Positions 7,978 to 48,965 of a DNA stretch of 64,000 nt are shown here, piece after piece; the first letter of the stretch is position 1, and each line of letters starts with the position of its first letter. Location of the stretch: the IMG/VR virus record IMGVR_UViG_3300031994_000044, positions 1 to 64,000 of that record; one strand, 5' to 3'. Position numbers and translations under genes: made by a program. Under the pieces are notes generated by a model, which saw nothing but the letters and a program-made list of their open reading frames with translations, had not been told where the DNA came from and did no database searches. The DNA comes from a virus. Lineage: Duplodnaviria > Caudoviricetes.

Positions 7978-8498
7978 ATATTTACGACAAAAATGTCAAA
8001 CTTGATTTAAATGGGTTTTTAAAGCATTAGAAAGACTTTTGTATTAAAATATATGAAGTATTGATTTTAATTTAATCGTGCATTAGGGGGCATATACGGG
8101 GCATATAGGGGACGTTACCCCCCTCTCCCATCCCCATTAAGGGGGTACCCCTTTTTTGGGCGCACAGTTGCTCGCGAAAATTTTTTCCGGAAAATTTAAC
8201 AAAATGTAGGATGAAGGTCCAAAATTAAAATTATCATTACCGTATCTAATTATTATCGATACAATTTCTAATCATTATTAAAATAAAAAAATCTCTATAT
8301 AAGTAACGCAAAAAAATGCGTTTTTCATGAGGGGGGGGTCTTTTTTCCCAAAAGGTACTACTTTTTGAAAAAAATTTTCCATATATAAAATCTATAATTA
8401 AAATCAATGTCTAGATTCAATGTTTGCCATATAGTATTTAGACACTTTGTCCAGATACTTGTCTAGATTCTGGGATAACGGCCCAAAATGAGGCATTT

Positions 8499-8578
8499 TT
8501 CCGTTATGACAACAGAAAAAAGAAGGGCGGCGAAAGATTCGCTGCCCTTATGGAACACGCATTGAATGTGGTTACATT
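8499..8578 (-). repeat. duplicated 3' element with intrinsic terminator (copy 1)
   Basis: About 80 nt highly similar to 11935-12013; hairpin AAGGGCAGCG..CGCCGCCCTT plus T tract. Confidence 0.85.
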
Positions 8579-8608
8579 CGAGGAGATTAGAGTTGTTAAA
8601 TGCTCTGC

Positions 8609-8791
8609 TTAAATATCCTTTGGAAGTTTTTCAATAAAATGTTGCTTCTTAAAGTCTGAAGGGCAATAAGGCCTTCTTTTATTGAAAATCCTAAGAATTT
8701 CGTCATTAGAATTTTCGGTTGGCTTATGAGAAGTTTCAATATTTGAAACTGTATAAAAGCTTGTGTTTTCCATATTATACATTTTATTCAA
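8609..8791 (-). CDS. small hypothetical protein
   Basis: 60-aa ORF between CRISPR cassette and duplicated terminator; true start may be 8772 or 8781. Confidence 0.4.
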   Translation of the reverse strand: MNKMYNMENTSFYTVSNIETSHKPTENSNDEILRIFNKRRPYCPSDFKKQHFIEKLPKDI

Positions 8792-8906
8792 TTATAATTA
8801 TAAATAGGTTATTATACTTATACAGAAAAATTTCTTAATAACCAAATCTTAGTGCCATCATGTATATAATTTCCATAAATTTTACAAATCCCTAATAGTT
8901 TACTGC

Positions 8907-9403
8907 GTTGTAATTACCATTATAAAAAAGATATTCAACAATTGAAACGCTTTCGGAATGCCGTAACTATCGTTGTAATTACCTTTATAAGAAAGGTATT
9001 CAACAATACATCGATACAAGACCTCTACTTCAACAGAGTTGTAATTACCTTTATAAGAAAGGTATTCAACAATACACAACAGAAAAGGAAACGGAAACAA
9101 CACGTTGTAATTACCTTTATAAGAAAGGTATTCAACAATAGGCAATAATAACATACAATTCCAATCAACGTTGTAATTACCTTTATAAGAAAGGTATTCA
9201 ACAATTCAAGACCTATGCTGATGTGTGTACGCTTAGTTGTAATTACCTTTATAAGAAAGGTATTCAACAATAAATGCCGTTCTTGGGGTCTTTTATGTAG
9301 TGTTGTAATTACCTTTATAAGAAAGGTATTCAACAATATCAACTGTAGTCAGGTACATATTATCGACGTTGTAATTACCTTTATAAGAAAGGTATTCAAC
9401 AAT
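8907..9403 (-). CRISPR. CRISPR array, 8 x 36-nt repeats, 7 spacers (29-30 nt)
   Basis: Repeat (minus) ATTGTTGAATACCTTTCTTATAAAGGTAATTACAAC starting at 8907, 8972, 9038, 9104, 9170, 9236, 9302, 9368; the 8907 copy has 3 mismatches (trailer end). Confidence 0.98.
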
Positions 9404-9469
9404 ATGATATTTATAATTTATTAATAAACAAAGTATTATTTAACAATTTTTTATTAAAAAAAGGCATAA

Positions 9470-11764
9470 TTAATCACATATTATTTGATACATATCCTTT
9501 TTTTTGAATATATTAAGTATTGAAGATGGTATTTTCTTTTTAAAAGTATCTTTGATATTATAGAGGGGGTTACCGTATCTATTATTTTCTTTTGTCTTAG
9601 TACACATTGTTAGAAGCAAATCGTTATTTTCGGCTATGTATTTAATATTATTTGCTGCATTAAAGTCAGCATTAAGACCATTTATATGGAATTCTTGTTT
9701 GGTTCTAACTTTGCGTTTGTCTATTAGTTGTAATTGTTTCTTATTATTTTTATCCATGATTTCTTTGACATAGATTTTATGTGTATTGCTATCCATTTGT
9801 GATGTAAAGGCCGCAGGGACAAAAATAACATTCATATTAGTATTATTAGACAATTGCACGAATTTGTCTTTTATGTCAGCAAAACCGATTGCCTTAATAA
9901 CCAGATTCTTAAACCGTTTTTTTTGTATTTCCTTTAAACCATAAACAGAATATGAAATGTCTTTTATGGTTTCGTTTTCATTAAAAATGAAATTATAATA
10001 TTTGGTATTAAAAACTGATTTATCAATTTCTGAATATTTTTTACCTTCAAAGCCATAATATGTCATAAGTGATTTAGCCGTTGGGAATGGTAATCTGTCT
10101 CTTTCAAAATTTGATGAATCAAGGTATTCAAGACCAATAGTATCAAAGCCATTTAGTACAATAACATCATATGCATATTTAATTATATTATCTCTACAGC
10201 CAACAATATCACATTTGACGTTTTCAAGTTTAACTATCAATCCTTTTGCAATATCTGTATTGATAAATGGGTTTTCAAATCTACGAGGGTCCATTGTTTC
10301 TTTTGAATTTGTTGATATATCAGAAAATCCCATTTTGTCATCATATTCATGATTTTTTTCATAGTATTTTTGTTTAAGGATAAAATATGATTTATATTTT
10401 GAACGAAGCATCTTGGTGTAATCAATATATGATGCAATCTTACAATTTTTATCTCTATACTTTTTGGCAAGATTATCAAGAGTTTGGCTAATCGCTATTT
10501 CTCTTTTAAGTAAGGTTTCATCTGTTATTGATACATTATTCTTTTTATCATACTGATTAGAAACACGTTCAAATAGTGATGGAATCTCTAAAAGTCCAAA
10601 AGAAACAAATTTTGCCATTTCAGTATAATAGGCAAGTTCTTCTTTGTTCAAAGTTGAAACAAAGTCTTTATTTTTTAAAAGTTCAACATAGATATTAATA
10701 TAGCCTTTCACTTTCCCGTTATCGGTAATTGAAGTTGCAAGCATTGAATGTTTTGTGTTAATATCAATACCTAATATATTTTTTATTTCTTGCTCTTTTT
10801 TTGAAAAATCTTTTTCGCTTGAGAAAGTAAAGAACAATGTTTTGCCTTTAACTTCAAAAGTTAAATCATATCCATGTTTGGAAGAAATATCTACTAAATC
10901 GACACGGTTTCCATTGTTATCAACCTTAACGGTTTGTCTATTACCCATTAAGTTTATATCATATGGCTTTTTATCTAACACAAGATGAAGAATATAAGAA
11001 GTAAGGCCATGTTTTTTTAATAGCATTTTTTGCATTTGAACAGTCATTGTTTTTCTGTTTCCGTTTCTTCTACAGCCATTGAATGATTTAAGACTTTCGA
11101 CGGCGTGTTTTTCTATTTCTTCATTAATTTCGTTTTTATGTTTAGTGTAATAATCAAATAAGAGTTCTAATCTTTTTATTTTTTCATCATTTGGCGTTTC
11201 ACGATTTTTAAAATAGGTAATTAAATTTTCAAAATCGGTTTCAGATTCAATTTTTTTATTGACAACTTCAAAAATTGTTTGTGTTTTAATTAATTGTTCG
11301 GTTACTGAATTAATGTCTATTTTTGAATATTTAACATTAGGTTTTAAAGTAACAAATTTTGTTCTATAATTACTGATTACATTTTTAACATATCCATTTC
11401 TTCTGAAATATGTATCTCCAAGTCCTAATATATTTTTTCCTTTATATCCATCAGCATTTAAAACTTTAATTGCTTCATACAATGCATTATCAGCATTCTT
11501 TTTTTGTGAAGAATTTAAATTTAATGAAAAAATTTTATATAATGGTAAATCTTTTATATCATCATTTAAGACAAATTTACAATAAACATTTTCTTTATTT
11601 TTAATATAATTTGCCAAATCTCCGATTTTCATTGATGTAAGATTATCACAAATGAAATCGCTGGTTCTATTGTAATAGTTTATGTACTCTTCAATTGCCG
11701 GTTCAAATAAAGACATAATGTCATCAATAGCCACATTCGACTTAAAAACATAAGATTTATTCAT
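9470..11764 (-). CDS. cas12: compact type V CRISPR effector, Cas-lambda-like RuvC nuclease
   Basis: 764 aa adjacent to array; RuvC-I LGIDIN, RuvC-II IGLEYL, RuvC-III NADFNAANNI; PAAFTSQMDS; ATTGTTG...ACAAC repeat resembles Cas-lambda repeats. Confidence 0.88.
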   Translation of the reverse strand: MNKSYVFKSNVAIDDIMSLFEPAIEEYINYYNRTSDFICDNLTSMKIGDLANYIKNKENVYCKFVLNDDIKDLPLYKIFSLNLNSSQKKNADNALYEAIKVLNADGYKGKNILGLGDTYFRRNGYVKNVISNYRTKFVTLKPNVKYSKIDINSVTEQLIKTQTIFEVVNKKIESETDFENLITYFKNRETPNDEKIKRLELLFDYYTKHKNEINEEIEKHAVESLKSFNGCRRNGNRKTMTVQMQKMLLKKHGLTSYILHLVLDKKPYDINLMGNRQTVKVDNNGNRVDLVDISSKHGYDLTFEVKGKTLFFTFSSEKDFSKKEQEIKNILGIDINTKHSMLATSITDNGKVKGYINIYVELLKNKDFVSTLNKEELAYYTEMAKFVSFGLLEIPSLFERVSNQYDKKNNVSITDETLLKREIAISQTLDNLAKKYRDKNCKIASYIDYTKMLRSKYKSYFILKQKYYEKNHEYDDKMGFSDISTNSKETMDPRRFENPFINTDIAKGLIVKLENVKCDIVGCRDNIIKYAYDVIVLNGFDTIGLEYLDSSNFERDRLPFPTAKSLMTYYGFEGKKYSEIDKSVFNTKYYNFIFNENETIKDISYSVYGLKEIQKKRFKNLVIKAIGFADIKDKFVQLSNNTNMNVIFVPAAFTSQMDSNTHKIYVKEIMDKNNKKQLQLIDKRKVRTKQEFHINGLNADFNAANNIKYIAENNDLLLTMCTKTKENNRYGNPLYNIKDTFKKKIPSSILNIFKKKDMYQIICD

Positions 11765-11853
11765 TTTTTTTATTTTAGTTAAATAAAACTTTCTTATTTA
11801 AAATTACAAATTAAATTTTAAAATTCAAAATGTTTTTATTTTAATTTGTACGC

Positions 11854-11869
11854 ATCAAATATTGTGCCA
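11854..11869 (-). promoter_or_regulatory. sigma54-like promoter of cas gene
   Basis: TGGCACAATATTTGAT, same class as early-gene promoters. Confidence 0.7.
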
Positions 11870-11934
11870 AACTTTTAATTAATATACAATTTATTAAGGG
11901 AACTATATACTTGATGGCACAAAAGTAAACATAA

Positions 11935-12013
11935 TTCCGTTACAGCAACAAAAAAAGAAGGGCGGCGAAAGGTTCGCTGCCCTTATGAAACACGCACTTA
12001 ATGTCGTTACATT
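11935..12013 (-). repeat. duplicated 3' element with terminator (copy 2)
   Basis: Matches 8499-8578; directly follows the ATPase stop. Confidence 0.85.
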
Positions 12014-12034
12014 TGACAATGTTAAGCGTGTTGC

Positions 12035-13597
12035 TTAATCATTAAAAAACGCAAGTCTTACTGCATTACTATAAGCCTCTTTGTAGTTTCTTATGTAATC
12101 TTGGGCATCATCATTGTTCCAATAGTCACATTTTTGCATTGCTGATGATTCGCAAGCCAGAAATGCTGCAATACTATATCTATCTTCTTCTGCAAGATTT
12201 TTAAATATCTTTTCATAGAAAGCATGGTCTTGATTGATAAGGACATAGGTTTTTCCGTTCCTTTGTTCAATATCGTACATAAATCCAAACGGACCATCAC
12301 TGATAAATTCAAATCCACCAATCCATTCACCAGTTCTTTTCTTTGTTGGATTAGGATTGTTTTGTGGTTTTGGGTTTGGATTTTTTTGTTTTGGGTTATT
12401 ACACTTTTCGTTCTTACTCTTTTGCTTCATTGTGCCAGCAAGCAAAGTGTTTTTGTTAAGTCTGTCAGCTGTTTGCTCAAGTGACTTTTTCATTTCTTCT
12501 GTCACTTTTTCTTCTTTAGTTTCTTTATGCTGTTTATTGTCTGTTTGTTTGGCCAAAGGTCTAACAATATTTGAAAGCATATCGTAAAAGCCTTGGTCCA
12601 TAGTTGATTTGTCTTTTTCTGTAACCATTTTTGCAAATGTAGTTCCAAAAAATCTGTCAGCGTTTCCATCCATAAATAATTCAAAACGGAAACCGTTTGT
12701 CCAACAACTGCTTTTATAACACATTCCTAAATCAAGACCTTTTCCAACAAGACGATTTTGCCTATAAACATAAATACCAGCCAATTCATTTGACCTACCA
12801 AAATAATCATCAAATGTCGCACTTTGTACATTTTTTGGAATGTACCATGCTTTCCATTCCATTCTGCTTCCGCCATATTCAAAAGCACCGTAGTCCATAA
12901 GTTCAACACCAAGTCCAGATTTGTTGCCAATAGTGTCAAAGAATGTGAGTTTCTTTCCGTTGACATTAAAATTGCAAGTGTTAGACTCAATGTATTTATT
13001 AAACAAAATTCTCATTTGTCTTATCAATGTACCTTCAAAGCTATGATAATCTTTACACGAAATTCTGTCAAGATTTGAAATAATAACTATTGTACCGTGA
13101 TTTGACTTTGTGTTTTCAAAAAAGAAAGAATATTCTTCAGTGTTTTCCGCATAAGACTTAATTCTAACATTAAGTTCACCTTCATCTGAAATATCATCCA
13201 AATCAAGATTTGCAACAAAAAGTTCACCTTCTTCAACTTTTGAATACACAGAAAGATGTGTACCAATTGAAATTGATGCTGTTTTAAGGCCAGCGCCATA
13301 GCATCCAAGATTATAATCCTTGCTTTTTCCTGTTTCAGAGCCAAGAGACATGGCCATCATAAGAGTTTCTTCATCCATTCCACACCCATCATCACAAATC
13401 ATAATTTTACCAACTGTTTTCTTGTCATCTGCTTTGATGAGTTTAATGTAAATGTTCTCAGATTCAACATCTGGCTCAAGAGAATTGTCAACAATGTCGG
13501 CAATTGCTGTGTAATTAGTGTAATTTAATTGTCTAAGAGCATCTTTAATAAAGTTTGCTCTAACTTTAAAAGGAAAATTTTTCTCCATGTTAATCAC
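12035..13597 (-). CDS. GHKL (HATPase_c_3 / MORC-like) ATPase
   Basis: AIADIVDNS, DDGCGM, LGCYGAGLKTAS, HGTIVIISNL motifs; GIYVYRQNRLV S5-like domain. Confidence 0.85.
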   Translation of the reverse strand: MINMEKNFPFKVRANFIKDALRQLNYTNYTAIADIVDNSLEPDVESENIYIKLIKADDKKTVGKIMICDDGCGMDEETLMMAMSLGSETGKSKDYNLGCYGAGLKTASISIGTHLSVYSKVEEGELFVANLDLDDISDEGELNVRIKSYAENTEEYSFFFENTKSNHGTIVIISNLDRISCKDYHSFEGTLIRQMRILFNKYIESNTCNFNVNGKKLTFFDTIGNKSGLGVELMDYGAFEYGGSRMEWKAWYIPKNVQSATFDDYFGRSNELAGIYVYRQNRLVGKGLDLGMCYKSSCWTNGFRFELFMDGNADRFFGTTFAKMVTEKDKSTMDQGFYDMLSNIVRPLAKQTDNKQHKETKEEKVTEEMKKSLEQTADRLNKNTLLAGTMKQKSKNEKCNNPKQKNPNPKPQNNPNPTKKRTGEWIGGFEFISDGPFGFMYDIEQRNGKTYVLINQDHAFYEKIFKNLAEEDRYSIAAFLACESSAMQKCDYWNNDDAQDYIRNYKEAYSNAVRLAFFND

Positions 13598-13736
13598 CCC
13601 TCACTACTTCTATTATTATTAACGCTCTCTAAATGGCATCGTGAAAGGATTTAATATTATTTCCATTCAAAAAGCAAAACTATTTAAATGATTTTTTCTA
13701 AATATACACATTTAATTTGAAAAAAACAAATTATTT

Positions 13737-13894
13737 GTGTCATCATGTATATAATTTCCTAATTTTTTATAAAAAATCCCTAAAGGGATTAGTTATCATT
13801 ACCTTTATAAGAAAAATATTTGTACACAACAAAAATTGTGCCAAACTTTTAATTAATATACAATTTATTAAGGGAACTATATACTTGATGGCAC
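13737..13894 (-). mobile_element. 158-bp internally deleted copy of the CRISPR cassette with a solitary degenerate repeat
   Basis: 13737-13791 resembles 8852-8906; 13792-13820 matches repeat 25/29; 13835-13894 identical to 11861-11920. Confidence 0.85.
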
Positions 13895-13900
13895 GAAATT

Positions 13901-14614: not shown

Positions 14615-14707
14615 AATCTAAAACATTTATTTAAAAAAATATACAAATTTAAAACAGATAAAACAACTATTTATATAATGATTATAATTTATATTTTATA
14701 AAGTAAA

Positions 14708-19317: not shown

Positions 19318-19415
19318 CTATTAAATTATTTTTTAAAAGTTATTTTTCAATTAATATACAAATACTTTTTATAAAAATCAACATTTACAACTATTTATAG
19401 TAAAATATTTGAGAA

Positions 19416-20063
19416 ATGAACAAAAAAGTAATTAGAATTAACGAAAATCACATAAGAAATCTTGTGAAAGAAGCATTAAGAAAACTCGTCAAAGAAGATA
19501 TTGACGGTTATGATGACGAAAATGAAATAGACCCCGATGATTGGCAATCAGAAGAACCATCAGATTTAGAAGTAAATGATATACTAATGACATTTAAAAG
19601 AGAATCTGAACAATTGGGTTTGAATTTTAGGGACCTTGGAGAAAAAGAATTTGCTGTTACTTGTAAAATAGGCGATAATGGCAAAGCAACCTGTGATATC
19701 AAGCAATTCTTGGAAATGGCTGCAATGTATGTTAATAGAGGTGTATTAAAAATAATTGGCCATGGAATATCCAAAGCAGGTACATGGTATTATAAATACA
19801 GAATTATTAAGGGTCAAATAGTCAGCGAAAGCAAAAAGAAGAGAAAAATAAATGAGGCTGAAGATTATGGATGGATTGTCGAAACAGATGAAGCACAATT
19901 GGCTTATCAATATTTTTGTGAAGAGATGGGTATAGAAGCCGCAAACGAAGCAATAATTAGGGCAATGAGTGATAAAACTTTATCTGAAATAATGGTTTAT
20001 CTTTTAAGAATGTATGATATGGATGGTTGGGAAGAGTATAAAGAGGAACATAGTCAATATTAA
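19416..20063 (+). CDS. hypothetical (probable head-internal) protein
   Basis: N-terminal IRINENHIRNLVKE motif; ACTATTTAT upstream. Confidence 0.75.
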   Translation: MNKKVIRINENHIRNLVKEALRKLVKEDIDGYDDENEIDPDDWQSEEPSDLEVNDILMTFKRESEQLGLNFRDLGEKEFAVTCKIGDNGKATCDIKQFLEMAAMYVNRGVLKIIGHGISKAGTWYYKYRIIKGQIVSESKKKRKINEAEDYGWIVETDEAQLAYQYFCEEMGIEAANEAIIRAMSDKTLSEIMVYLLRMYDMDGWEEYKEEHSQY

Positions 20064-48852: not shown

Positions 48853-48965
48853 TTAACTTTTGGCAATTATATACCAGTTAACACAAATATACAATTTTTT
48901 CTTGAAAATTCCAAACCTGCCACTATTTATTAGAGAGCAATAAAAAGAATATAATAAATAAAAAC

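Follow-up and report, generated by a model that had tools for sequence, protein, structure and literature searches.

The IMG/VR virus record IMGVR_UViG_3300031994_000044 is 106 kb long and estimated to be 29% complete, and its source is therefore a huge phage. Its first 64 kb (64,000 nucleotides), referred to here as the window, carry a Cas-lambda gene with a CRISPR array, bracketed by short inverted repeats, and a 158-bp copy of the same arrangement that lacks cas. We consider it likely, with good confidence, that the inverted repeats are the ends of an insertion sequence (IS) of the IS1595 family, that the Cas locus and the small copy are DNA lying between such elements, and that the present layout arose by a tandem duplication followed by deletion of cas. 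A preliminary description of the window had instead read the Cas locus as a mobile or invertible unit, and the 158-bp copy as an empty derivative resembling a miniature inverted-repeat transposable element (MITE) or an invertible promoter.

The inverted repeats as ends of an IS1595-family element

The repeated motif, GTGCCATCATGTATATAATTTCC, occurs four times in the window, at 8852-8874 on the plus strand, 11898-11920 on the minus strand (3 mismatches), 13737-13759 on the plus strand (1 mismatch) and 13872-13894 on the minus strand (3 mismatches). It had 0 matches in 100 shuffles, and the inverted repeats reported earlier around cas and the array are thus real. Extended to 23-26 nt, the ends lie at 8849-8874, 11898-11923, 13734-13759 and 13872-13897, bracket Cas-lambda with its array and the 158-bp cas-less copy, and score 33-43 of 45 by position weight matrix (PWM). 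These four are the only strong copies in the 106-kb record; a degenerate extra end lies at 48862-48887 on the minus strand (PWM score 26, with none at or above 12 in 5 genome shuffles).

Outside this record, the motif is scattered across other huge-phage contigs from rumen-type samples. Taking GTGCC...TTCCC on the plus strand as an F copy and its reverse complement as an R copy, opposite-strand pairs in a relaxed scan always ran R then F, 0.3-2.1 kb apart, among the loci listed. Perfect AT-rich 8-bp direct repeats flank 14 of the 20 distinct adjacent R..F (left-end/right-end) pairs at phage loci, and at loci from metagenome-assembled genomes (MAGs) labelled Bacteroidales a perfect 8-bp duplication was found for 11/26 end pairs and one with a single mismatch for 5/26. 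An autonomous copy at positions 304-1788 of locus L092 is 1,485 bp long, has the 8-bp target duplication AAAAATTT and encodes a 311-aa transposase. This protein, present in the R..F units of L092 and L082, matches DDE_Tnp_IS1595 (PF12762, 3e-44), Zn_ribbon_IS1595 (8e-9) and the NCBIfam model 'IS1595 family transposase' (NF033547, 5.8e-60, 203 bits vs a cut-off of 75). From left to right, the L092 element has a left end GGGAAC..., the DDE transposase, a passenger gene that runs convergently from a promoter of its own and a right end ...GTTCCC, and the same outer tips close the 14 duplication-flanked insertions. In a profile built from 59 distinct copies, conservation breaks off precisely at the CCC tip and the next 8-9 positions are nearly all A/T. 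AT-rich 8-bp target duplications have been reported for the IS1595-family member ISApl4 (PMC12561309). Paired ends with 8-bp duplications, an IS1595 transposase and conservation bounded by the tip therefore identify the motif as an IS1595-family terminal inverted repeat. From the target duplications, and from the same cassette standing at different sites, we infer that the element transposes.

If the motif were not a transposon end but a regulatory site of the phage, such as a promoter, operator or enhancer that recurs where operons meet, it would also lie between genes and often beside terminator hairpins, as it does, and the IS tip AACTATATAC does look like a common promoter-like motif, ACTATTTATA. 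However, the motif takes either orientation to the adjacent genes at about 50:50, the 106 kb hold just 4 copies, and its distribution is explained by paired copies with perfect 8-bp duplications and a transposase between them, which makes a regulatory site extremely unlikely. Narrower readings were rejected as well: as a promoter, on the ~50:50 orientation and low copy number; as a sigma-54 enhancer, where the motif ends TGGCAC, yet no consistent -12 element is seen and most copies have no such promoter nearby; and as a coding C-terminus, which holds in isolated cases only. The ACTATTTATA motif sits ~20-35 nt upstream of many start codons in the window, often right after a terminator hairpin, for example at 8798-8807(-), 14666-14675(+), 19390(+), 30042(+), 41139(-) and 52764(-), and is probably a main promoter element of this phage.

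Distribution and passengers of the element

Many copies of the IS1595-family element have lost the transposase and carry other genes. The passengers of transposase-less R..F units include TnpB, a GIY-YIG-like protein, a lipoprotein and small open reading frames (ORFs). A search of related phages for whatever the repeats bracket, as had been proposed, thus found transposase, TnpB, lipoprotein and small ORFs, all in R..F units. In MAGs labelled Bacteroidales, Paludibacteraceae, Muribaculaceae and Prevotella these ends were found in >120 stretches, on contigs that may be chromosomal or mis-binned phage, and many of these MAG copies are 150-600-bp MITEs with 8-bp duplications. No match to the IS element was found among GenBank phage records.

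Several individual copies merit description. Two TnpB cassettes (L078:9438-11553 and L085:10572-12129) have IS1595-type ends and perfect 8-bp duplications, and their TnpB proteins are 376-378 aa long (NF038281, 4.5e-126); an additional protein of the L078 cassette, with no Pfam hit, reads as GIY-YIG-like from its N-terminal motif. A small-protein family beginning MNKKxxIRINENQLKQIV... recurs as a passenger beside transposase and IS ends (L014:2441-3316, L072:1565-2059, L082:1930-2235, L092:1367-1699), and a protein with a similar start is encoded in the window near 19416 (19390-19450). In another Cas-lambda phage, whose Cas is 34% identical to that of the window, a 494-bp IS-ended cassette with a 144-aa lipoprotein gene lies inside the last CRISPR repeat (L061:10886-11440; same element at L084:9205-9698); the T run of the repeat is duplicated on both sides, and two 15-nt 3' halves of the repeat follow. 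A solo 23-nt IS end (L018:5581-5603; G003:38708-38730) lies inside an ORF read as homing-endonuclease-like, whose 405-aa frame returns once 23 nt, or another length that is 2 mod 3, are taken out, and no target duplication was seen at it. In the same related record, G003, a ClpB-like ATPase (L037:3450-7682) is apparently split into two ORFs (642 aa, 372 aa) by one of 383 aa whose C-terminus is DUF559/endonuclease-like, and this may be a homing-type insertion.

Anatomy of the locus

Comparison of the autonomous L092 IS with the phage genome by BLAST gave five collinear matches: IS 940-1072 at window 8490-8621 (86% over 133 nt), IS 1457-1485, the right end, at 8846-8874 (the right end also matches 13734-13759), IS 1-30, the left end, at 11898-11927, IS 949-1039 at 11935-12024 (86% over 91 nt), and IS 1-29, again the left end, at 13872-13900. 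The order on the plus strand is a first element, E_A (8487-8874), the Cas locus (8875-11897), a second element, E_B (11898-13759), a deleted copy of the Cas locus (13760-13871) and a solo left end, E_C (13872-13897).

E_A begins with a remnant of the transposase 3' end (8487-8612, +), which includes a hairpin serving as a minus-strand terminator; translated, 8442-8609 gives a peptide that shares 80% identity with the L092 transposase over residues 271-311 (E 7e-22). Its passenger slot is occupied by a 60-aa ORF taken from the ORF list (8609-8791, -; no Pfam or PADLOC match), convergent with the transposase remnant and with overlapping stop codons, a layout as in the autonomous L092 IS. The right terminal inverted repeat follows (8849-8874, +; PWM 34 of 45), and its outer tip at 8874 adjoins the CRISPR trailer. 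A decayed left end of E_A was considered at 8458-8483 and rejected, as this stretch aligns to the IS end no better than to the transposase gene.

The Cas locus starts with the trailer, which runs from the terminal CRISPR repeat to the IS tip (8875-8906, -) and is 61% identical to 13760-13791. The array (8907-9403, -) has 8 repeats of 36 nt and 7 spacers and is transcribed with cas; its terminal repeat, 8907-8942, is degenerate. The cas-lambda gene (9470-11764, -) encodes 764 aa matching PDB entries 9izp (E 2.8e-145) and 8dc2 (E 6.5e-116). Upstream of cas and ending at the IS tip lies a segment that we call block P (11844-11897, -), 94% identical to 13818-13871. Both copies of this promoter block contain TGGCAC-N5-TTGA/TTGT with sigma-54-like spacing, at 11860-11875(-) and 13834-13849(-).

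E_B opens with a left terminal inverted repeat (11898-11923, +; PWM 43 of 45), the outer tip of which, 11898, adjoins block P. Most of its transposase gene is deleted, leaving a 3'-end remnant (11925-12039, +); the translation of 11898-12035 matches transposase residues 280-308 (79% identical, E 3e-14). The passenger slot holds a 520-aa GHKL ATPase (12035-13597, -; Pfam HATPase_c_3, 8.5e-22). This protein matches MzaB of the MZA anti-phage system in PADLOC (2.8e-22) and in NCBIfam (1.4e-23, far under the family cut-off), the match being limited to the N-terminal 300 residues; no other Mza components were seen near it, and no relatives of it were found in five related phage records or in viral contigs. 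The right terminal inverted repeat of E_B (13734-13759, +) has a rare ATTTCC tip variant, as at 8849-8874.

The deleted Cas-locus copy (13760-13871, -) is 112 nt long and comprises block P' (13818-13871), a truncated CRISPR repeat (13792-13820) and a terminator-like hairpin found by terminator scan (13775-13790). The solo left terminal inverted repeat E_C (13872-13897, +; PWM 40) comes after it, with the stop codon of a 141-aa ORF directly beyond. No partner end was found to the right of E_C by PWM scan, and the alignment of a candidate near 14660-14695 was unconvincing.

The tips face the Cas locus and its copy, and both are therefore DNA between elements rather than cargo. A transposase acting on the ends in the window would move the neighbours, not the Cas cassette. 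The preliminary description had reported no transposase, and there is indeed no intact transposase gene in the 29%-complete record, but it missed the two 3' remnants at 8487-8612 and 11925-12039. A second repeat family (8516-8581 / 11951-12016), tried as a structured terminator module, proved to be this transposase gene 3' end. None of the elements in the window is autonomous, and for any movement they would need a transposase supplied in trans.

The opposite view, that Cas-lambda and its array are cargo between two arms and that the 158-bp copy is a MITE-like empty derivative transposed 1.8 kb away, starts from arms that are genuinely transposon ends, from homology between full and mini copy that ends a few nt from the outer edge of the right arm, and from a mini copy that is an internal deletion retaining both arms. 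We find it very unlikely. The arms are inside-out relative to every duplication-flanked insertion and to the autonomous element; neither bracket, around the full Cas locus or the mini copy, has a target-site duplication, as had already been noticed; homology continues past the left arms via ~50 nt and the transposase remnants; ~30 other Cas-lambda loci have no arms; and no other short bracket of such polarity with a cas remnant was found. True MITEs of this element family (150-600 bp, 8-bp duplications) have the arm order opposite to that of the 158-bp copy, whose tips face inward (right end then left end) and which, with no duplication, a single copy in the 106-kb record and a block P not found in other viral contigs, is not a MITE. 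The earlier proposal of mobile DNA therefore survives in that the repeats are transposon ends that shaped the locus, and fails for the Cas cassette, which the tip polarity excludes as cargo. Drawing the limits of the unit at the arms had likewise overlooked that polarity, the second repeat (8487-8612/11925-12039) and the ~50 nt of homology beyond the left arms.

The 158-bp size, the 23-nt inverted arms and the promoter-like block inside would also suit sites of a site-specific invertase, with the small copy a Bacteroidota-type invertible promoter of the ATPase gene and the Cas cassette itself invertible. However, the recombinase search that had been suggested gave no PF00239 or PF00589 match in this record and four related records (G000 to G004; this record, G000, is 29% and one related record 82% complete), so no serine or tyrosine recombinase is at hand, although a host enzyme could act. 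The same sequence elsewhere is a transposon end with 8-bp duplications, and a terminator-like hairpin stands between block P' and the ATPase gene. We consider an invertible promoter or unit highly improbable. We also rejected the idea that the two arms pair with each other at long range within the RNA of cas and array, the upstream arm being outside the likely transcript.

Comparison with other Cas-lambda loci

The locus was compared with 6 IMG/VR and 24 metagenome Cas-lambda loci (some contigs are in both sets), whose Cas proteins are 27-52% identical to that of the window. Those related loci whose repeats were mapped are arranged in the same way, with the array after cas, the same repeat orientation and repeats ending ...ACAAC; Cas-lambda crRNAs (CRISPR RNAs) are built as repeat-then-spacer (PMC12141684). 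Inverted repeats bracketing cas and array were found at none of these ~30 loci. Absence of the arms from homologous loci had been named as one part of what would count against a Cas cassette bounded by them, and 0 of ~30 loci have them.

The window Cas belongs to a protein cluster that is found on 4 contigs, and one 80%-identical protein is also known. No relatives closer than 62% came out of scans that used Cas, the ATPase, block P or the SprT-like neighbour, and the array spacers had no match in the comparison loci. The Cas locus lies within a variable region between genes conserved with G003, and is absent from the syntenic place there.

Origin of the second copy

The 81-nt block 11844-11924 is 95% identical to 13818-13898, and the truncated CRISPR repeat 13792-13820 stands ~32 nt from the left arm of its bracket, as far as repeat 8907-8942 stands from its own, so that the shared stretch and equal repeat spacing of the preliminary description are borne out. 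The units 8487-11934 and 11925-13900 are collinear, module by module, and ~50 nt of weaker homology continues to the left of the left arms. IS ends are sparse elsewhere (4 in 400 kb of syntenic regions from 24 related phages), and four independent insertions inside 5 kb are therefore unlikely. The E_B pair (11898-13759) has no target duplication of its own (TTTATTAA vs TAATTTTT); to its left stands block P, the same as before the solo end, and the sequence to its right shows homology to the trailer beside E_A. The tip variant common to both right ends is found in only 3/59 copies. An E_B without duplication, matching flanks and a rare shared tip variant are therefore as one tandem duplication predicts.

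In the scheme that we favour, a single tandem duplication of ~3.4 kb would have started within the 3' end of the transposase gene and stopped barely inside the left end that lies downstream. The duplicated unit would comprise transposase remnant, passenger, right end, Cas locus and left end, which gives two collinear units, and E_B would be the chimeric junction element between them. In a second step, a deletion at an ATT microhomology would have removed cas and most of the array from the second unit. The 158-bp copy, described earlier as having the same two ends without cas, is in these terms derived from the Cas locus by deletion, and the sequence does show the ATT junction.

Several observations weigh against this scheme. 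The passengers of the two units are unrelated (a 60-aa ORF vs a 520-aa ATPase), so that a single duplication needs a later passenger swap. Divergence is uneven, with block P and the left end 95% identical and the other modules 61-83% (Fisher p 7e-5 and 1e-6), a pattern suggestive of gene conversion, of selection or of two separate events. On its right the duplication would stop within a few nt of where the end has its inner edge, which a random-breakpoint model leaves to coincidence. The 29%-complete record has no transposase gene, and transposition is itself deduced from duplications. Passenger exchange by recombination with other copies, plus gene conversion or selection on the promoter block, would explain both the passenger and the divergence misfit.

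E_A and E_B flank the Cas locus in direct orientation, and the locus may have arrived, or may move, as the middle of a compound or pseudo-compound transposon, with the tandem copy produced by recombination between the two elements in an amplification of the translocatable-unit type. This overlaps with the tandem duplication that we favour, and the two are compatible. The region is variable and has no counterpart at the syntenic place in G003, and a moving IS1595-family pseudo-compound transposon has been described (PMC12561309). On the other side, no left end could be detected for E_A, which leaves the composite immobile at present; the homology between E_A and E_B is short (~125 nt + 75 nt); a second copy of such a composite was not found; and block P was not found in any other viral contig. 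On balance we hold this account to be unlikely.

The promoter block of the deleted copy is 95% identical to that of cas while the rest of the unit has drifted to 61-83%, and the deleted copy may have been kept for a purpose. Tentatively, and with low confidence, it might give a ~60-nt RNA of repeat hairpin and terminator; loaded into Cas-lambda, this RNA could act as a mimic of crRNA that is guide-less or self-regulating. Travel of the IS-flanked locus between huge phages as a compound transposon is a separate proposal, and a similarly doubtful one.

Relation to known systems

The element shares with the IS1595 family a DDE transposase with N-terminal zinc ribbon, terminal inverted repeats beginning GG, a passenger gene beside the transposase and AT-rich 8-bp duplications such as those of ISApl4 (PMC12561309). 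It differs in being present in huge phage genomes and MAG contigs, and the window has transposase-deleted copies and a solo end only. Passenger-carrying members of the family with which it may be likened are presumably the ISNwi1- and ISNha5-like groups of ISfinder.

Mobile insertion cassettes and MITEs, such as MIC231 of the Bacillus cereus group, consist of IS ends around passengers and are mobilised in trans. The 0.15-2.3 kb transposase-less left-end/right-end cassettes described here, with perfect 8-bp duplications and TnpB, lipoprotein or small-ORF cargo, are of this kind. E_B has the same build but no target duplication of its own, and the 158-bp mini copy, with its arms in the reverse order, falls outside this kind.

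Elements of the IS26 family form pseudo-compound transposons and translocatable units. Among IS1595-family elements, a pseudo-compound transposon, Tn7560, has been described with ISApl4 (PMC12561309). Like these, the window has a useful segment between directly oriented IS copies, in an IS-segment-IS-segment-IS order without fresh duplications. Unlike them, its flanking copies are decayed, their passengers are unlike, and one has no outer end.

Bacteroides invertons similarly span ~160 bp between ~20-nt inverted repeats with a promoter-like block inside, but here no invertase was found and the repeats are transposon ends. Viral solitary repeat units and mini-arrays (RNA anti-CRISPRs and regulatory crRNA-like RNAs) share with the deleted copy a lone degenerate repeat, a promoter-like block and a terminator-like hairpin; the window copy differs in that it can be explained as the remnant of a duplicated Cas locus.

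Conclusions

The idea of a self-mobile or phase-variable Cas-lambda cassette is thereby removed, and a concrete anatomy takes its place. The element is new within a known family and has an unusual host; it extends known transposon biology and is not a new mechanism. A single IS1595-family element has spread among the huge phages of the rumen, together with MITEs and cassettes derived from it, and its ends are also present in contigs of MAGs labelled Bacteroidales. It ferries passengers that include TnpB and a defence-type GHKL ATPase, and it remodels phage CRISPR loci, flanking a duplicated Cas locus here and placing a cassette inside a CRISPR repeat in another phage. The finding is relevant to the shuffling of accessory genes and CRISPR systems that phages carry.

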